From the NCBI GenBank assembly GCA_043821365.1, contig JBDRCX010000003.1, forward strand, positions 1 through 64,000: 64,000 nucleotides of DNA, given 5' to 3'. Source of the DNA: Candidatus Micrarchaeota archaeon. Lineage in GTDB: Archaea; Micrarchaeota; Micrarchaeia; Anstonellales; Bilamarchaeaceae. Position numbers and translations under genes: made by a program. Position 1 is the stretch's first letter, and each line of letters opens with the position of its first letter. Below are positions 29,526-58,150 of this stretch, in pieces. The notes beneath the pieces were generated by a model. That model had not been told where the DNA came from. It ran no database searches and worked only from the letters and a program-made list of their open reading frames with translations.

Positions 29526-29643
29526 GGGCCCGTAGCTCAGCCAGGCTAGAGCGTTCGACTGATAAAAACTTTTTTGGAAAAAAAGTTTTACAAAAAACTT
29601 ATCAGTGATCGAAAGGTCATGAGTTCAAATCCCATCGGGCCCA
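29526..29643 (+). tRNA. tRNA-Ile(GAU) with 43-nt intron at 37/38 (29565-29607)
   Basis: GGGCCCG/CGGGCCC acceptor, TTCGA-CTGATA|A-TCGAA, TTCAAAT T-loop; CTGA/TCAG helix at the junction; one A-C mismatch in the T-stem. Confidence 0.93.
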
Positions 29644-50004: not shown

Positions 50005-51441
50005 ATGTTCTCTATAAAAAATTTCTCACTTTTATTTTTGATTGTAAGTGTCTTTCTACTGTTTGGTTGTTTTTTTCCAAACACGCCTTCAGATAATGGA
50101 CTACCTTCGAATCATCTAACAAATCAATCTAAGAATAATACTATGAAACCGCCACTACCCAATACTAGTATTAAATCTAATATTGTTGATGTAAATATTC
50201 CATCGTCAAGTGGTAATGGGACAATTGCAGTTCGTCTTCAAATACCAAACAAAACTAGATATTCTGATGGTGCACCAGTTGTCATATGGATTTCTGGTGG
50301 CTATGATGGTGGCGGACTCAATCATGGTTTTGCTTCAGAATTAGACGATACAGCAGTAATTACATTTCTTTTTCCTGGTATAGAGGATCCATGGGCAGGA
50401 ATTAAGTCTGATGGTGTTTATGATTATCGTGGTGAGAATTGTATTATCTCACTTAAAGATGTAATTCTCTATGCAGCTGGAGAAAAAACAGACAATCTTA
50501 ACCGTACTATTGATGAAATTTCAAACATTGATATTCTTCATAATAATATTGGGTTAGTTGGTTCATCAAATGGTGGCAACATAATAGTTGCTCTACCTGC
50601 GTTTTATGGTGATGAACTTGTTGGTCATTTGCGCTATGTTATCCAATGGGAAACACCAGTTTCAAGTCAAATAGCGAATCGTGATTTTGGTAGAGTCTGG
50701 CTTAAACCAGCAACTGGACAAGGTGATTATTTCAATCCACGTTATTCTGGTTATGGCCCACTTATTCTTGGTTCAAATTATAGTGATCTTACTTACAATC
50801 CGAGTTATTCATATTACACTATATTCCATGATGGTAATGGTGATGGTCAATATACTACTGTCTCAGTAGCTGGTAAAGACCTTCCTGATCTTGATGGAAA
50901 CGGAAAACTTGAACTTAATGAAGATTTCCCACTTGATTACTATCCTGGTGGAGAGAATGGTACAATCCTCTTCTATTCCCGTCCAGTAACTTATGCAATG
51001 GAAGAAATGAATATCTTCAATGGTTCTTGGCCTTCAAATATTGCAACACCAGAGCAAGCAGATGAGTATTGGGATTTGAGAGAGTCAGTTGTTCTATATG
51101 ATGATGCAATTGCAAATATGCCAGATCTTGAAGCCATGGTTTTAGCAGGCGAAGTTGATCATGTTCAATCCTCATATGATAAGTTCAATATCCAACAAGC
51201 TTTTGGTGGATTAATGAAAGCAAATGTATCCTGGGTTCAAATAAATCCAAGTAGTAGCTATCTTACTTCAATTAACCCGCTTTACAGCAATAGGAATGAT
51301 CTTCCAGATAATCAGCCATTCACATCGCCGACAAATTGGAAGAATTTCTCATCATACACCATTCCTGCTGATGTTTTCAAAGGATTTTATCAATCTGCAT
51401 CAGTCTGGCAGATGGCTGATAGAGCGCATAATAACAATTAA
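50005..51441 (+). CDS. Secreted lipoprotein, alpha/beta-hydrolase-like
   Basis: Lipobox-like LLFGC, PVVIWISGG, GLVGSSNGG nucleophile elbow, DxDGNG loops. Confidence 0.65.
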   Translation: MFSIKNFSLLFLIVSVFLLFGCFFPNTPSDNGLPSNHLTNQSKNNTMKPPLPNTSIKSNIVDVNIPSSSGNGTIAVRLQIPNKTRYSDGAPVVIWISGGYDGGGLNHGFASELDDTAVITFLFPGIEDPWAGIKSDGVYDYRGENCIISLKDVILYAAGEKTDNLNRTIDEISNIDILHNNIGLVGSSNGGNIIVALPAFYGDELVGHLRYVIQWETPVSSQIANRDFGRVWLKPATGQGDYFNPRYSGYGPLILGSNYSDLTYNPSYSYYTIFHDGNGDGQYTTVSVAGKDLPDLDGNGKLELNEDFPLDYYPGGENGTILFYSRPVTYAMEEMNIFNGSWPSNIATPEQADEYWDLRESVVLYDDAIANMPDLEAMVLAGEVDHVQSSYDKFNIQQAFGGLMKANVSWVQINPSSSYLTSINPLYSNRNDLPDNQPFTSPTNWKNFSSYTIPADVFKGFYQSASVWQMADRAHNNN

Positions 51442-51496: not shown

Positions 51497-52234
51497 ATGC
51501 ATGATAAATTAGCAAGATCATTCAAGTATGCTTGGGAATTTTATCTAAAAAGATGGGGTATTATTGTTGCTTTTTCAATCCCATTCATTGTTGCATTTCT
51601 AATTCCAACACTTGTTCCAGCACCAACATACCTAGCCCTTGGTGCTGTTTTCCTAAGAACCGGGAGTCTTCCCGATCTAACTCTTTTCGACATAGTAATT
51701 ACAGCACTAGCATACGCATTATCTGTTTTCATAATCGCAGACACCATAGTCAATATCAATATAGTTGTACGATCAAAAAGAACACTAACATCTATTCAAT
51801 ACGAAGTTGTTCATGCATTGGGAACCTACGGTACAAGGATATTCTACATATATACAATGGTACTATTGCTGATGTTTATTTTCCAACTTTTGACCTATGA
51901 TAATCCTCTTCAAACTTGGATATACCCACTTGCATCATTTATACTGTCATTCTTACTATTCTTTATTCCACCTGCAGTTGTAATTGATAATTCAGATACT
52001 CCAACTGCAATAAAACGTTCAATTAAGATGGCAATGAAGAATCCACATTTCATTTTAGTGTGGGCAGTTGCATCTCTGATATTATTATCTGTGGTTAAGA
52101 TATTCGCTGATCTTATATTTTCAGATCCATTTTCAGGATACTTTGTATTATTGGTGAATTCATTACTGATACTTCCCTATCTTACAATCTTACAAACTCA
52201 AATGTACATGGAGAAATATCCACTAGCAAGGTAA
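51497..52234 (+). CDS. Hypothetical multi-pass membrane protein
   Basis: About six hydrophobic segments; PPAVVIDN. Confidence 0.65.
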   Translation: MHDKLARSFKYAWEFYLKRWGIIVAFSIPFIVAFLIPTLVPAPTYLALGAVFLRTGSLPDLTLFDIVITALAYALSVFIIADTIVNINIVVRSKRTLTSIQYEVVHALGTYGTRIFYIYTMVLLLMFIFQLLTYDNPLQTWIYPLASFILSFLLFFIPPAVVIDNSDTPTAIKRSIKMAMKNPHFILVWAVASLILLSVVKIFADLIFSDPFSGYFVLLVNSLLILPYLTILQTQMYMEKYPLAR

Positions 52235-52238
52235 TTCA

Positions 52239-53228
52239 ATGCCAAAAAATCAGACAGAGTCCAGAAAAAAAGACCATGTTGATCTAGTTGTTGATGATGG
52301 AGCACAATATGCAAAAACAACTGGATTCGAACGTATGGATTTTGTCCATAATGCATTGCCAGAAATATCTCTTCAATCAGTTGATCTTTCAACAAAGTTC
52401 TTCAATAAAAAAATCAAATATCCAATTCTAATAACTGGAATGACTGGTGGGTATTCTGATGCTGAAAAAATCAATAGACAACTAGCAGCAGCTGCACAGA
52501 AATACGGTCTTGCATTTGGTGTTGGTTCACAAAGAGCAATGATCGAAAAACCAGAATTAGCAAAAACATATAAAGTTCGTGATGTTGCTCCAGATATTCC
52601 ATTACTCTCCAATATCGGTGCATTTCAACTTAAGAAATATTCAACCAAACAAATTGAATCATTGGTTCAAGATATCGAGGCAGATGCTCTTGCAATCCAT
52701 CTTAATGCACTTCAAGAGGTTATCCAACCAGAAGGCGATACTGATTTTACTGGAATTTTAGCTGCAATAGAGAAAACATGTGACGGATTGTCAGTTCCTA
52801 TTATTGTTAAGGAAACTGGTGCAGGCCTTAGTCAGGATGTTGCAATTGCATTGAAAAAAGCAGGTGTGAAATATTTGGATGTTGCAGGAGCAGGTGGAAC
52901 ATCCTGGAGTGTTGTTGAATATCTTCGTGGTGGTGGTGTTCCTGGTTTTGAAAACTGGGGGATTCCAACTGCTGAATCAATAATCCAATGTAAGGGAGTT
53001 CTGCCAATAGTTGCTACTGGTGGAATCAGAACTGGTGTTGATGGTACAAAAGCAATAGCTCTTGGTGCAGATATGTGTGGTGCAGCCTACCCATTCATCA
53101 AATCATTAAAGAAAAACAAACTAAATCAATTTATAGAGATTTTTGAGAAGCAAATGGCAATATCAGCTTATCTTACTGGTTCTAAAACTATTTCTGATCT
53201 AAAAAAGGCCAAACTTCGATTTTTGTAA
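52239..53228 (+). CDS. fni: Type 2 isopentenyl-diphosphate isomerase
   Basis: RKKDHV, MTGG, GVGSQR, NIG, HLNALQE, VKETGAG, DVAGAGGTSW. Confidence 0.97.
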   Translation: MPKNQTESRKKDHVDLVVDDGAQYAKTTGFERMDFVHNALPEISLQSVDLSTKFFNKKIKYPILITGMTGGYSDAEKINRQLAAAAQKYGLAFGVGSQRAMIEKPELAKTYKVRDVAPDIPLLSNIGAFQLKKYSTKQIESLVQDIEADALAIHLNALQEVIQPEGDTDFTGILAAIEKTCDGLSVPIIVKETGAGLSQDVAIALKKAGVKYLDVAGAGGTSWSVVEYLRGGGVPGFENWGIPTAESIIQCKGVLPIVATGGIRTGVDGTKAIALGADMCGAAYPFIKSLKKNKLNQFIEIFEKQMAISAYLTGSKTISDLKKAKLRFL

Positions 53229-53342
53229 CACTTATTTAAAAACTTACTACCATATTCTAACATTCAATGTACCTTAGTGGCTAAACTCTTAGATTTAGTG
53301 CTAAAAGTAGTATTTAAATAATGTTATAAACAGTGTATATAC

Positions 53343-54962
53343 ATGCAAAGAGTAGAAAAAATGCTAGCTCAGCGATCGCATTGGCCTCCTCAGCTTCAAG
53401 CATCAGCTAGAAGGTGGGCTGATTGTTATGCCAAGTTCGGTGGCCAAGATGCATTTTCCCATCCACTCCGTGTTCTTGACCGTGCAATAGACCATGATAT
53501 GGTTGAACTGCATAAAATTGGGGATAGGCGGGTAGATCCTAAACAACTTAATCTTAAACTAGCGAACATCATACTCGGACATATATTTAGACATGGAAGA
53601 AATAATCGGAGAGATTTCCCATCAGAAGACTTTGAAAGAAGCCAGCTGACCATGAGTGGATTTGAAATTTTTGATGCATTAAGGGAGAATGATCTTAGTG
53701 CAATGTCACGGGCTAGATATGGTGAACTTTTAGAAACTCCATCGCTCGGCACATTAGCAAGATGTATTGATGTTGCACAATATGGGCCAGATGGACTTAC
53801 TTCTGAAGGTGAACTTGCTAACTTAGATCCAAATATTTTCTACCGATTCAGTCCATATACAGGTAAAAGTGAATATGAACATATAGCTCGCGTTGCAAGA
53901 ATGGTTTATGCACCTCTATGTGATCTTTTCAGTTATAGAAAATTAGCTGGAGATTTGATGCAAATGTCCTATTACCATCTTGATCGTGGGATTTATGATG
54001 ATGTAAATCTGTATTTAAAACTTCTAGAAACTAAAATTGCTGCAACTCAGAGACTTATGGAGGCAGTACTTCTCCAATTAAAAGAGAGACTGGATAGTGC
54101 TGGTTATAGGTATGATATAATCTTTAGAGAACAAAAACATCCTGGGAAAGTTATGGAGAAGGTTGACAGGTATTCGCGTGGTGATGGCCTTTCAACCGAA
54201 ACACATATTGAATCGCTTAGTGATCTTGTTGCTTTTACTGTTGTTTTACACTCAAAAAAAGATGGTAATGGTGGTAAGGTTATTACACAAAATGATCTTG
54301 ATGATTTTGAATTTGTAGCAAAATCTATAGTTGAAATCGTATCGGGATTGAAAAAATTACGTAATAATAATTACAGCGCTAGTCTTTTTACTGATAGAAT
54401 CACTAATCCTAAAGAAAGTGGATACCAGTCCTATCATGTTGACATGGCATTTGAAGACCATAGTTTAGTTGGGCTTGAAGCAATAGTACGAAATACCATA
54501 ATGCATACATATGCCGAACGAGGTGGTGCAGCCCATCATCTATTCAAAGGAGGGGCTGGATTAACAAAAACAGTTGAAAAAGCTTACAGGAATATCAAAG
54601 ATGCAATTGCAGGGGGTCAAAATCCAAATGACACTGACCGATCAGTTTCTTATCAAAGAATTCAATTTGTTGTTCCAGGTTCTGAACCATATCTGCGCAT
54701 TGTTCCGGGAGGTGCATCAGTTGGAGAAGCTCTTATTTGCGGTGGCATCAGCCTATTTGATAGACTTTCCATTGATCCACCAAGATCAATTTTTGATCAA
54801 ATTCGTGGTACTTCAGAATTACGTTTAGTTACGTCTGGTTATCCTCTTGTTGCTAATGAACAAATTCTAAGAGAGCTTCAAATGATGGCAATTAATCCAT
54901 CTACTGCACGTGAAATTCATGGTTTAATAAGAGAACTAAGACTTACTCCTAGATCTCCTTGA
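53343..54962 (+). CDS. Long RelA/SpoT homolog-like protein (degenerate HD, synthetase, TGS-like)
   Basis: HPLRV, YAPLCDLF, REQKHPGK, SDLVAF, DRITNPKESGYQSYH, EAIVRNTIMHTYAERGGAAH, VPGGAS. Confidence 0.85.
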   Translation: MQRVEKMLAQRSHWPPQLQASARRWADCYAKFGGQDAFSHPLRVLDRAIDHDMVELHKIGDRRVDPKQLNLKLANIILGHIFRHGRNNRRDFPSEDFERSQLTMSGFEIFDALRENDLSAMSRARYGELLETPSLGTLARCIDVAQYGPDGLTSEGELANLDPNIFYRFSPYTGKSEYEHIARVARMVYAPLCDLFSYRKLAGDLMQMSYYHLDRGIYDDVNLYLKLLETKIAATQRLMEAVLLQLKERLDSAGYRYDIIFREQKHPGKVMEKVDRYSRGDGLSTETHIESLSDLVAFTVVLHSKKDGNGGKVITQNDLDDFEFVAKSIVEIVSGLKKLRNNNYSASLFTDRITNPKESGYQSYHVDMAFEDHSLVGLEAIVRNTIMHTYAERGGAAHHLFKGGAGLTKTVEKAYRNIKDAIAGGQNPNDTDRSVSYQRIQFVVPGSEPYLRIVPGGASVGEALICGGISLFDRLSIDPPRSIFDQIRGTSELRLVTSGYPLVANEQILRELQMMAINPSTAREIHGLIRELRLTPRSP

Positions 54963-55413
54963 ATTCAGTAAGTCTAGTTATAACATTCAAAACCATGTTT
55001 GTATTTGTTTTTTCTACACCAGAAACTGCAAGTATCTTTTTTACTGTTGAACTGAGTTCACCGCGTGTTTTACACATAACAACTGCAATTGCATCATATC
55101 CACCAGTTGTATCCCATACTGCTGCCACATGTGGTATTTTTGCCACCTTTCCTTCTATCTGCAGTAAATCCTTTCCTGAGATGCTTATATCTACAACTGC
55201 CATAAATTCAAAGCCTAGTTTGTTGTAATCCAGTTTAGCCCCATACCCAGTTATGTATTCTGATTCTTCGAGAGATTTTACTCTTTCTATTATTGCAGTT
55301 GTTGACATTCCAATATCCTTTGCAAGTTTTCGATAGGAACGTTTTGAATTTTTTACTAATTCCCCAAGTAGTCTTTTGTCCATTTCGTCCAGTTTTCTTG
55401 TAATATTTTTCAT
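54949..55413 (-). CDS. Lrp/AsnC-family transcriptional regulator, divergent from glnA
   Basis: LDEMDKRLL, SYRKLAKDIG, ERVKSLEE, TTGGYD. Confidence 0.93.
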   Translation of the reverse strand: MKNITRKLDEMDKRLLGELVKNSKRSYRKLAKDIGMSTTAIIERVKSLEESEYITGYGAKLDYNKLGFEFMAVVDISISGKDLLQIEGKVAKIPHVAAVWDTTGGYDAIAVVMCKTRGELSSTVKKILAVSGVEKTNTNMVLNVITRLTEFKEI

Positions 55414-55555
55414 ATAAACCAAACATTTGTATGTAATATTTATATATTTATTGGACATTTGTTTGGTTAAAAACCATTTCACAAGCTTTTTAATCTTTGT
55501 TTTCTTATTTTAACAAATATTTGGGAGTTTTTAGTTTAATTTGGGAGGTTTTATT

Positions 55556-56899
55556 ATGGAATTTAAAGAAGTTACTGACGAAGAAATATTGGAAAGAGTT
55601 GCGAAAGACAATGTAAAATTTGTGAATCTGCAATTCACTGATCTTTTTGGTGTTGTTAAGAATGTTACAATTACTTCTGAACATCTTGAAGATTCACTCG
55701 AAAGTGGAACCTGGTTTGATGGCTCTTCAATCGAAGGGTTTGCAAGAATCCATGAAAGCGACATGTTTTTGAAACCAGATAAAGACACGTATGTTTCAAT
55801 CCCATGGTTACATTCTGCTGATGGTAATACTGCGAGGTTGATTTGTGATATATATAACGCAGATGGAAAGCCGTTTGAGGGAGCTCCAAGAACAATTCTA
55901 AAAAAAGTATTAGCAGAAGCAAAAGAACTTGGATATGAATATAATACTGGACCAGAACTAGAATTTTTTCTTTTCAAAAAAGAGAATTGTAAATTGCAAC
56001 CACTTCCACATGATAAGGGTGGCTATTTTGATTTAAGTATGGATCATGCCTATGAAATAAGAAGAGACATGGCCATAGCATTAGGAAAATTTGGTATAGC
56101 TGTTGAAGCACTTCATCATGAAGTTGCGGTTGGTCAGCATGAGATTGATTTTAGATATGGTGATGCTCTAAAAACTGCTGATAATGCAACAACAATGCGA
56201 TATGTAGTGAAAGCTGTTGCAGAAAAACATGGTTTACATGCTACTTTTATGCCAAAGCCAATTACGGGTATAAATGGCAGTGGTATGCACATCCATCAGA
56301 GTCTTTTCAAAGATGATGTCAATCTATTCTTTGATGGGTCTGATTCTCATAACATGTCTTCACTTGCAAAAAATTTCATTGCCGGACAATTGAAACATAT
56401 TCGTGGTATGTGTGCGATAACTTCACCCACAGTCAATTCATACAAAAGGCTTACTCCGGGGTATGAAGCCCCAGTTTATTTAAGCTGGGCAAGAACAAAT
56501 CGTTCTGCATTAATTCGTGTGCCTGCCATCAAGAAAGATAAGCCAAAAGCTGCTCGTATTGAATTACGTTGCCCAGATCCATCCTGCAATATTTATCTTG
56601 CATTTGCAATAATGTTAAAGGCTGGCCTGGATGGAATAAAGAATAAACTTGAACCACCAGTACCTGTAGAAGAAGATCTTTATGAGTTTGATGATAATAA
56701 ACTTTCAAAACTCAATATTGCACAACTTCCCTATTCTTTATTTGAGGCAACAAAAGAAATGAAAAAGAGTGAGCTTGTAAAAGATGTTCTGGGAGAAACA
56801 ACTTTCAACAAGTATATTCATGCAAAGATTTCTGAATGGGATGAGTACAGATTACAAGTTACCGAGTGGGAGCTTGATCGCTATCTGGAAAGTTATTGA
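55556..56899 (+). CDS. glnA: Glutamine synthetase type I
   Basis: FDGSSIEGF, GPELEFF, HHEVAVGQHE, TFMPKP, NGSGMH, NRSALIR, RIELRCPD. Confidence 0.98.
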   Translation: MEFKEVTDEEILERVAKDNVKFVNLQFTDLFGVVKNVTITSEHLEDSLESGTWFDGSSIEGFARIHESDMFLKPDKDTYVSIPWLHSADGNTARLICDIYNADGKPFEGAPRTILKKVLAEAKELGYEYNTGPELEFFLFKKENCKLQPLPHDKGGYFDLSMDHAYEIRRDMAIALGKFGIAVEALHHEVAVGQHEIDFRYGDALKTADNATTMRYVVKAVAEKHGLHATFMPKPITGINGSGMHIHQSLFKDDVNLFFDGSDSHNMSSLAKNFIAGQLKHIRGMCAITSPTVNSYKRLTPGYEAPVYLSWARTNRSALIRVPAIKKDKPKAARIELRCPDPSCNIYLAFAIMLKAGLDGIKNKLEPPVPVEEDLYEFDDNKLSKLNIAQLPYSLFEATKEMKKSELVKDVLGETTFNKYIHAKISEWDEYRLQVTEWELDRYLESY

Positions 56900-57784
56900 A
56901 ATAGTTCAGTGGTGAAATATCTCTCTCCATTATCTGGAAGTAGGGAAATCACTATTCCTTTTATTTTTTTCGCAGTTTGAATTGCAGCCCACATTGATGC
57001 CCCACTACTAATGCCAACCAATATACCTTCTTTTTTTGCTAAATTTCTTGCAGTTTCAAAAGCATCATTGTCACTAACATAGATTATTTCATCTACTTCT
57101 TTTCTATTGAATATTTTTGGAACAATTGATGTTTGCATATTTTTTAACCCCTGAATCTTATGGTTTGGGTATGGTTCTGCTGCAATAATTTTAATTTCTG
57201 GATTTTTTTCTCTTAGTAATTTTCCAACTCCCATAACTGTTCCTCCAGTTCCAATACCAGAAACAAATGCCCTTATTTCACCGTCAGTCTGTTCCCATAT
57301 TTCATTTGCTGTTTGTGCATAATGTGCCAATGGGTTGTTTTCATTGGAATATTGATCTGGCATAAAATATTTTTCTGGATTTTTTTCTAATTTTTTATTT
57401 GCAAGATTTATGGCCCCATCAATCCCAAGTTCTGCTGGTGTTAATGTTATCTTTGCACCAAATGCAGTCATTGCTTTTCTTCGTTCCAAACTTGCATTTT
57501 CTGGCATAACTATTTCAATTTGGTACCCTCTCACTGCACCAATCATGGCAAGAGCTATACCAGTATTTCCAGATGATGCTTCAATTACAATTCGATTTTT
57601 TATCAAATCCAATTTTTCTGCAGCTTCAATCATTTTCTGAACAGGACGATCTTTTATGCTGCCACCAGGATTTCTACCTTCTAATTTTGCGTATAATTCG
57701 TTTTCACTTAATCTATTTATTCTAACTAACGGAGTCCATCCTATTGTCTCCAGTATGTTAGCAGGCCAACCACCTATTTTTCAT
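56893..57784 (-). CDS. cysM: Cysteine synthase (CysK/CysM); annotated frame lacks an in-frame ATG
   Basis: NILETIGWTPLVRI, EGRNPGGSIKDR, SSGNTG, DQYSN, GTGGT, DNGERY; the RBS-led ATG at 57784 is out of frame by one A. Confidence 0.85.
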
Positions 57785-58024: not shown

Positions 58025-58150
58025 CGGGCCCAGAGGGATTTGAACCCTCGACCTGCGGATTCCACCTTTTACCAAAAAGTGGAGCCAAAAGTGGCTCTCC
58101 ATTTGATAAAATTAAAAGTCCGACGCTCTACCAAGCTGAGCTCTGGGCCC
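58025..58150 (-). tRNA. tRNA-Lys(UUU) with 52-nt intron at 37/38 (58061-58112)
   Basis: GGGCCCA/TGGGCCC, GCTC/GAGC, TCGGA-CTTTTA|A-TCCGC, GAGGG-TTCAAAT-CCCTC; intron folds into a long hairpin. Confidence 0.92.

Follow-up and report, generated by a model that had tools for sequence, protein, structure and literature searches.

Bacterial long RelA/SpoT homologs (RSHs), represented by the structures of Rel from B. subtilis (6yxa/8acu) and T. thermophilus (Tth; 6s2u), of E. coli RelA (5iqr) and of A. baumannii SpoT (7qpr), are the closest described counterparts of P0001, a protein encoded in the 64,000-nucleotide stretch of Candidatus Micrarchaeota DNA analysed here (the window). As far as the beginning of the helical domain, they agree with P0001 in domain order and folds, and they have in common with it a YAPLA-x-RLG linker and the residues that bind Mg2+ and phosphates and stack the acceptor. 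However, P0001 is only ~15% identical to them, is ~200 residues shorter and falls into a separate clan of our tree; it lacks the HD/ED residues, the CCA-stacking His, the ZFD/CC and the ACT/RRM, and three exchanges (S247K, R269T and Q325I, in RelSeq numbering) are fixed in its family. E. coli RelA, of the 'hS' type, likewise carries a dead but conserved HD-fold domain ahead of its synthetase and needs a separate hydrolase. Yet the P0001 family groups elsewhere in the tree, implying an independent loss of the hydrolase, and RelA keeps R269 and Q325 as well as the TGS His432, ZFD, RRM and activation by the ribosome (PMC7797070), regulatory elements that are absent from P0001.

The small alarmone synthetases (SAS) RelP and RelQ and the toxic SAS (toxSAS) CapRel, FaRel2 and Tas1 have the synthetase fold in common with P0001 (Z 12-13 for the former and 10.4, 7.7 and 9.6, respectively, for the latter). 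They are single-domain proteins or fused to unrelated antitoxin or delivery modules, without the HD fold, the long-RSH linker and the TGS of P0001, which is thus not a stand-alone synthetase of the SAS kind. Nor is P0001 accompanied by a defence-model match or a conserved antitoxin neighbour, as expected of toxSAS and CapRel, its neighbours being fni, an Lrp gene and glnA.

For archaea, the RSH census of Atkinson et al. lists no long RSH (PMC3153485), (p)ppGpp-type alarmones have gone undetected and the stringent system is described as absent (PMC8646023; PMC13728122). Li et al. (2021) reported RelA/SpoT genes in Diapherotrites, Woesearchaeota, Pacearchaeota and Nanoarchaeota and read them as bacterial gene transfers (PMC8407392); their survey builds on automated annotation, does not list Micrarchaeota and contains no domain or active-site analysis (PMC8407392). 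The terms Micrarchaeota, Archaea and DPANN are absent from the text supplements of Jimmy et al., and our literature search found no published description of the P0001 family.

A long-RSH architecture that ends after the TGS-like domain

What kind of protein is P0001? An initial annotation, made from the letters of the window, had proposed a multidomain long-RSH homolog in an archaeon, with a dead HD-domain remnant, a synthetase with altered motifs and a TGS-like start without ACT. The boundaries and strand of the open reading frame (ORF) are exactly as it gave them (539 aa; Table 1), and all the motifs that it quoted are present in the translation: SHPLRV (aa 39-44), GHIF (79-82) and YAPLCDLF (189-196) in the N-terminal part, R262-x2-K265, SDLVAFT (293-299), DRITNPKESGYQSYH (351-365), EAIVRN (379-384) and MHTYAERGGAAH (387-398) in the synthetase, and VPGGAS (454-459) at the start of the TGS. 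RelA_SpoT (PF04607 at aa 264-403; E=1.8e-10, 41.5 bits where the gathering score is 27) is the sole Pfam domain in P0001 and is matched by all 28 aligned family members, none of which gave an HD, HD_4 or TGS match at E<=1; the HD and TGS assignments therefore rest on structure and global alignment. Against the NCBIfam model TIGR00691 (spoT_relA), P0001 scored 48.3 bits, below the trusted cut-off of 499.2.

Both lines of comparison lead to long RSHs. Aligned by hhalign with 37 canonical long RSHs (E. coli SpoT and RelA plus 35 canonical hits), the profile of 28 homologs matched with a probability of 100% (E=1.3e-49), and family residues 19-539 fell onto E. coli SpoT 1-487, a span that runs from the HD domain through linker, synthetase and TGS to the first helix of the helical domain. 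The profile of our family alignment A1—whose mean column identity is 53% and which is conserved from end to end, including the regions without a Pfam assignment—ranked long RSHs best among PDB sequences (RelA 6e-17, RelSeq 1e-14) and placed its positions 182-388 on residues 163-355 of the Tth Rel chain. An AlphaFold (AF2) model built from A1 (pLDDT 84.6, pTM 0.72) retrieved full-length SpoT, Rel and ribosome-bound RelA as top Foldseek matches over ~550 columns, and a second structure aligner superimposed model residues 3-394 on the N-terminal domain of B. subtilis Rel (Z 20.8, rmsd 4.0 Å, 313 of 331 residues), whereas SAS reached only Z 12-13 and covered aa 222-425. The domain order given in the initial annotation is borne out by profile and structure comparison. 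P0001 thus has a long-RSH architecture that ends after the TGS: a pseudo-hydrolase, a linker, a synthetase, a TGS-like domain and one helix.

We accept an RSH-type HD fold for the predicted N-terminal domain. Folded separately, aa 1-178 gave a confident model (pLDDT 89.6, pTM 0.88), and when this was exhaustively aligned with 48,161 chains, the first ten places all went to RSH hydrolase domains (Z between 9.0 and 5.9 over 120-142 residues, with an rmsd of 3.5-4.5 Å), among them those of Rel (9.0), SpoT (8.4), Leptospira small alarmone hydrolase (SAH; 7.4), Mesh1 (7.4), RelH (7.1) and a (p)ppApp hydrolase (5.9), with generic HD phosphohydrolases next; these Z values are moderate for a helical domain, but the ranking is nonetheless specific to RSHs. 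Foldseek gave no match for the isolated aa 1-178 model at E<=0.001, and the N-terminal 175 residues on their own were not significantly similar to canonical long RSHs in profile comparison (E=0.26, in the wrong region).

The catalytic residues of this domain are largely gone. SpoT H72/D73/E76/D77 correspond to H80/I81/H84/G85, so that H80-I81 stand in place of the HD dyad and R83-H84-G85 in place of the ED motif, and SpoT D139 corresponds to D143; only H80 and D143 are retained. Throughout the family, the Asp of the dyad is replaced by I or V and the ED motif reads R-H/G, which leaves P0001 with neither the complete metal site (His...His-Asp...Asp) nor the Glu-Asp motif of a hydrolase. Judged by these residues, (p)ppGpp hydrolysis by the known mechanism is excluded because the dyad Asp and the ED motif are lost, in agreement with the dead hydrolase claimed at the outset. 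The domain is nevertheless no decaying remnant: with a mean majority fraction of 0.66, compared with 0.63 for the synthetase and 0.54 for the TGS, no other part of the protein is as well conserved, and H40, D65, H80, D117 and D143 are invariant or almost invariant. The pseudo-HD is a constrained pseudo-enzyme domain rather than a relic, and a dead HD under stronger constraint than the adjoining synthetase bears on how pseudo-hydrolases control synthetases.

The linker that follows is itself a long-RSH signature. HMMER aligned profile positions 178-252 with RelA 168-240, with Tth Rel from 163 onwards and with SpoT 160-230, the region of the YAPLA-x-RLG linker; structural alignments to SAS, which are without it, begin at model residue ~214-222.

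At the other end of the synthetase, model residues 435-536 matched chain residues 391-489 of ribosome-bound Rel (6htq_x), comprising the TGS and the following helix (rmsd 2.9 Å, 93 residues); the Z of 8.2 is borderline, and no family member has a Pfam TGS match. Submitted alone to hhalign, the C-terminal 108 residues (432-539) gave a weak match in the correct place (E=0.0067, SpoT 385-482); the isolated 432-500 segment failed to align with canonical long RSHs. The TGS His that stacks on tRNA at its 3'-CCA end (RelA H432/Rel H420; PMC7797070) is present in 35 of the 37 canonical sequences, and the equivalent family position 468 is G (19 sequences) or D (9), G468 in P0001, with no His within ±6 residues. 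This His, the ZFD and the RRM are required for activation by A-site tRNA (PMC7797070). The alignment to RelA 5iqr_8 reaches chain residue 501, and P0001 stops at the equivalent of SpoT 487, where the next gene is convergent and overlaps it by 14 nucleotides (nt). Since a separate C-terminal half was not found in the genome either (87% complete; searched with the C-terminal domain of a canonical Micrarchaeota Rel, see below), the ZFD/CC and ACT/RRM are absent, and the TGS-like start without ACT noted originally finds its confirmation in hhalign and structure.

Synthetase site and proposed activity

Does P0001 still make an alarmone? We assigned residue roles by mapping onto SaRelP (PMC5794853) and RelSeq (PMC13299517). 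In SaRelP, Arg78 and Arg112 sandwich the adenine of ATP, Lys80, Ser84, Lys88 and Arg91 bind its phosphates, Asp107 and Glu174 bind Mg2+, His190 contacts the ribose and Tyr151 stacks the acceptor (PMC5794853); in RelSeq, D264 and E323 are essential and pppGpp is contacted by residues including K297, Y299, H312 and Q325 (PMC13299517). In a census of 30 family sequences, R262, K265, K273, D294, K357, E379, H398 and K402 were retained in every one, and Y361, H365 and R383 in 29; R276 is likewise among the canonical residues kept (29-30 of 30), and the acceptor-stacking loop PK-x-NGYQS-H is canonical. What the family retains are thus the ATP-phosphate, Mg2+, ribose and acceptor-stacking residues of SaRelP and RelSeq, and such invariance in an alignment with a mean column identity of 53% points to selection on a working nucleotide site.

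With a probability of roughly 60%, P0001 is an active alarmone pyrophosphokinase that is hydrolase-dead, synthetase-only ('hS') and not regulated in the way of RelA, a reading we favour because the Mg2+ carboxylates, like the phosphate, ribose and acceptor-stacking residues, do not vary, although the family is otherwise only about half conserved. P0001 descends from a long RSH that was remodelled into a pseudo-hydrolase, a synthetase, a TGS-like domain and one helix. Mg2+ may be held by D294 and E379, the phosphates by R262, K265, K269, K273 and R276 and the ribose by H398, and the β,γ-pyrophosphate of ATP would be transferred to a purine nucleotide that stacks on Y361, at its 3'-OH, (p)ppGpp being the most economical product. 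The conserved pseudo-HD and TGS-like domains would likely serve as allosteric or regulatory modules, akin to the dead HD domain of RelA. Because the TGS His, ZFD and RRM are missing, the bacterial route of control by deacyl-tRNA at the A-site of the ribosome appears unlikely. The Lrp/AsnC-glnA neighbourhood may hint, weakly, at a link to amino-acid or nitrogen status.

How would the product be removed? A separate enzyme may be responsible: in this organism possibly a 140-aa protein, in most relatives something else. The 140-aa protein is the one other product of an RSH-superfamily gene in the genome, SAH-like, with an HD_4 match of 43.8 bits; it carries the motifs PYFIHP, LHDVIEN (its HD motif intact) and CDMIDN, in the PDB, it is closest to Leptospira SAH (7qoe) and to a (p)ppApp hydrolase (7smg, E=8e-10), and its gene lies on another contig, 6 nt downstream of that for a class-I Tyr/Trp-type tRNA synthetase. 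By its sequence, it could degrade the RSH product. A conserved pairing of synthetase and hydrolase was considered and rejected as a general rule: of 21 genomes sampled in the genus, 3 have HD_4 and 18 the RSH. The genome (87% complete) gave no Ppx/GppA homolog and five Nudix hits, which show no link to alarmones.

Several observations weigh against an active synthetase. As the initial annotation had seen, the motifs are altered, DLxAxR reading DLVAFT and EVQIRT reading EAIVRN: of the canonical site R241, K243, K251, D264, R269, K304, Y308, H312, E323, Q325 and R327 (RelSeq numbering), 9 of 11 residues are conserved, which leaves it short of complete. R269 is T299 in 29 of 30 family sequences, costing one of the two arginines of the ATP-adenine sandwich (PMC5794853); Q325, named the catalytic glutamine in one modelling study (bioRxiv 10.1101/2021.04.30.441581), is I/L381 in all 30, with loss of a product-phosphate contact (PMC13299517); and S247, a near-universal canonical position, is K269 in all 30. 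The canonical triad S-R-Q thus reads K-T-I in the family and its nearest relatives, and conservation is lost at the positions of the pppGpp-contacting K297 and Y299. Given these changes, activity, donor and acceptor could all differ. Turnover adds to the difficulty, in that an unopposed (p)ppGpp synthetase contravenes the bacterial rule (PMC3153485): of the 39 other genomes in the genus, just 8 have distant homologs of the 140-aa hydrolase (30-39% identity), and the one that carries the closest RSH ortholog is not among these.

How the substitutions are explained sets the alternatives apart. An altered product or acceptor, as originally proposed, is in our view the best of them, albeit well behind an ordinary alarmone synthetase: the fixed S247K/R269T/Q325I triad would retune the enzyme to another acceptor or donor. 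The exchanged positions belong to the sandwich around the ATP adenine and to the site of the product phosphate (PMC5794853; PMC13299517), and positions 299 (K/T) and 381 (I) co-vary throughout the clan. The small hydrolase of the genome is about as similar to the (p)ppApp hydrolase 7smg as to (p)ppGpp hydrolases, isolated Rel TGS-helical fragments bind tRNA CCA ends (PMC7797070), and the tandem paralog pairs of relatives loosely resemble two-gene modules. Yet the acceptor-stacking loop is canonical, the CCA-stacking TGS His is absent, and the model resembles Rel and the housekeeping SAS more closely than CapRel, Tas1 or FaRel2. Moreover, the neighbours are housekeeping genes, without a conserved small antitoxin-like neighbour, and no defence or toxin model matched beyond E ~1e-3, the only PADLOC hit being PDC-S33 (E=0.0013, 16 bits).

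Somewhat less probable still is a pseudo-enzyme with both catalytic domains dead, which would bind nucleotides or alarmone-like ligands and serve for sensing or as a scaffold. That the hydrolase is dead is clear, R269 and Q325, almost invariant in active synthetases, are replaced across the family, and the lack of a consistent hydrolase partner in relatives is easier to understand if no alarmone is made. This idea, also contained in the initial annotation, loses ground to the invariant Mg2+ carboxylates and phosphate-binding basic residues: a pure binding module has no need of D294 and E379, and the additional invariant K269 at the α-phosphate position looks compensatory rather than degenerative. 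The suggestion of a secreted, host-directed effector through which an episymbiotic DPANN cell would act on host nucleotide pools or translation has only the DPANN lifestyle (PMC8407392) and the unusual active site in its favour and is very improbable, as P0001 has no N-terminal signal or hydrophobic segment, no secretion-system neighbours and no PADLOC hit that would fit, and its housekeeping synteny is conserved.

A more far-reaching picture, which we hold to be possible but unlikely, is that Bilamarchaeaceae-type Micrarchaeota run an alarmone system of their own: a long-RSH-derived radiation with a rebuilt ATP and product site (K269/T299/I381) and a pseudo-HD repurposed for ligand sensing, whose messenger would be unlike bacterial (p)ppGpp in product, donor or trigger and whose control would be ribosome-independent and possibly tied to nitrogen or amino acids via Lrp-glnA.

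Why should an active enzyme of this kind matter? Here, one archaeal lineage has a native long-RSH-derived gene with a near-complete catalytic core that is conserved in a genus and has undergone duplication and diversification. Whether archaea make alarmones, and what triggers them without the bacterial ribosome sensor, becomes testable with a defined protein. For RSH enzymology, the family represents a natural experiment in which an adenine-sandwich Arg and the Gln beside the catalytic Glu are replaced and an α-phosphate Lys is added. Even if its activity proved ordinary, P0001 would be the first characterised truncated, hydrolase-dead long RSH fixed in an archaeal clade.

Distribution and phylogeny of the family

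So far, the family is restricted to Candidatus Micrarchaeota, with named members from Bilamarchaeaceae. When 5.8 billion proteins were searched through a word index, 30 full-length relatives (476-562 aa, 32-59% identity) came back, those with names being proteins from metagenome-assembled genomes (MAGs) of Candidatus Micrarchaeota, mostly labelled 'hypothetical protein'. An exhaustive profile search of 1.84 billion cluster representatives yielded 41 clusters at E<1e-30, after which scores fell steeply from ~800 to ~85 bits, the latter belonging to ordinary bacterial long RSHs of 700-780 aa. Additional relatives with a name are from Candidatus Bilamarchaeaceae. Among 185,579 species-representative genomes, all ten strong matches were Micrarchaeota/Micrarchaeia MAGs. 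SAS-sized relatives were not found in a search with the synthetase domain only, a result that depends on the word index and leaves their absence unproven.

Within the genus, the RSH gene is present in 22 of 24 sampled genomes; the 16 genomes sampled across 11 further families of the order did not yield it. At the level of the phylum, 51 of 301 sampled genomes match the family profile, with a concentration in the window's family (36 of 64) and in a few other families; in the two largest families of the phylum, none of 75 and none of 54 genomes match. These heterogeneous matches comprise ~530-aa orthologs, proteins of 620-700 aa and paralogs of 450-490 aa, which stop behind the synthetase and likewise have a dead HD dyad (HS/HT/HP). 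Several genomes of the genus encode, directly upstream of the ortholog, a second and divergent RSH paralog (455-463 aa, with a dead HD dyad and RelA_SpoT and without TGS). Genomes G013 and G017 carry two or three tandem RSH copies and that of the window a single RSH gene.

Another Micrarchaeota family (f21) encodes a canonical, bifunctional-type Rel of 652 aa (L023:1062-3020, minus strand, in genome G123; also in G083, G193 and G295). It belongs to the same phylum, class and superfamily as P0001, but differs in its full set of HD_4 (146 bits), RelA_SpoT (133), TGS (59) and ACT_4 (43); the two share just a 53-residue motif in BLASTP, at 40% identity. Together with the RelA/SpoT genes of other DPANN lineages (PMC8407392), f21 Rel renders outdated, at genome level, the view from which the initial annotation had started, namely that archaea have only scattered small RSHs. 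The f21 gene adjoins one for a DJ-1/PfpI protein.

A tree built by a quick maximum-likelihood method from 122 rows and 241 columns (root: three RelP/RelQ-type SAS from phage-collection records; support from the Shimodaira–Hasegawa-like approximate likelihood-ratio test only; long branches present) separates the SAS from all proteins with HD and synthetase domains (support 100). P0001 belongs to a clade of 18 rows (97) inside a clan of 75 divergent clusters, whose monophyly (83) is only moderately supported in such a tree. The f21 Rel nests among canonical bacterial Rel/SpoT; it looks like a separate acquisition and, on present evidence, is not the direct parent of the P0001 family.

Genomic context and native origin

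Coordinates of the gene, its domains and the surrounding features are collected in Table 1. The order membrane protein, fni, RSH, convergent Lrp/AsnC and glnA recurs in relatives: fni-(paralog)-RSH-Lrp-glnA is syntenic across the genus in at least 8 genomes, the RSH-Lrp-glnA trio is kept in most relatives with enough flank, and the RSH-Lrp/AsnC arrangement, in which the genes of the window overlap at their 3' ends (54949-54962), is repeated at L004, L006, L008, L009, L010 and L011. Boxes of the TTTAAATA/TTTATATA type lie at a similar distance upstream of the orthologs at L004-L008, L010 and L011 as the A/T box does upstream of P0001; going by its sequence and place, this A/T box is a probable archaeal TATA box for a leaderless or near-leaderless mRNA.

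Table 1. Features of P0001, its neighbourhood and related loci (window positions unless a locus or contig is named)
Feature	Position	Strand	Basis
Coding sequence of truncated long-RSH homolog P0001 (539 aa)	53343..54962	+	ORF list, Pfam, hhalign, structure
Pseudo-hydrolase domain, RSH-type HD fold	53349..53876 (aa 3-178)	+	Structure alignment, residue mapping
Central helical linker with long-RSH signature YAPLCDLFSYRKLAGDL	53877..54098 (aa 179-252)	+	HMMER, hhalign
Synthetase domain (RelA_SpoT, nucleotidyltransferase fold)	54099..54617 (aa 253-425)	+	PF04607, SAS structures, residue census
TGS-like beta-grasp domain	54645..54842 (aa 435-500)	+	6htq_x structure match, hhalign
C-terminal helices, aligned to first helix of long-RSH helical domain	54843..54959 (aa 501-539)	+	hhalign (SpoT 450-487); RelA 5iqr_8
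A/T box TATTTAAATA, ~27 nt upstream of ATG	53311..53320	+	Read directly
Type-2 IPP isomerase-like FMN enzyme (fni), conserved neighbour	52239..53228	+	Pfam FMN_dh, synteny
Lrp/AsnC-family regulator, convergent, conserved neighbour	54949..55482	-	Pfam AsnC_trans_reg and HTH_AsnC
Glutamine synthetase (glnA), divergent from Lrp gene, conserved neighbour	55541..56899	+	Pfam Gln-synt_C, 441 bits
Upstream RSH paralogs in relatives	L006:61-1446; L008:58-1443; L004:3-1394; L009:3079-4446 (-)		
SAH-like gene, outside the window	G000 contig C6 ~568403-568825 (L014:1483-1905)	+	Pfam HD_4

The RSH gene is native to the archaeon, in a locus of archaeal ancestry, and has been maintained vertically. RSH genes are usually bacterial and the GC content of this one (0.383) lies towards the top of the window's range (z=1.9), but an origin by mis-binning or mis-assembly of a bacterial fragment into an archaeal contig is excluded, given that contigs of two independent studies bridge the fni-RSH junction (51500-53550 and 52927-53748) and the RSH-Lrp junction (54729-55748 and 54697-55088) without a single difference, that the GC content at third codon positions (0.207) and the codon usage are like those of the neighbours, contrary to a compositionally foreign gene, and that the conserved synteny, the archaeal-type A/T box and the purely Micrarchaeota strong matches tell the same story. 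The initial annotation had thought contamination unlikely, and the check has now been made.

Three minor features of the surrounding DNA may be added. Just upstream of the A/T box, at 53274-53304, lie two related palindromes, TTAGTGGCTAA and TTTAGTGCTAAA, which were not found at the same position upstream of the orthologs in nine relatives. Two of the three Rfam tRNA hits in the window are 118 nt (29526-29643) and 126 nt (58025-58150) long and were missed by ARAGORN with bacterial settings, consistent with intron-bearing archaeal tRNA genes and in keeping with the archaeal origin of the window. Among the ORFs, that of 478 aa at 50005-51441 has a hydrophobic segment near its N-terminus, is without a Pfam match at E<=0.001 and lies two genes upstream of the RSH gene, with a membrane protein and fni in between; a cysteine-synthase-like ORF of 246 aa (56893-57633, minus strand) matches PALP only from profile position 52 onward, which falls on residue 8 of the ORF, and so seems to miss ~50 N-terminal residues.

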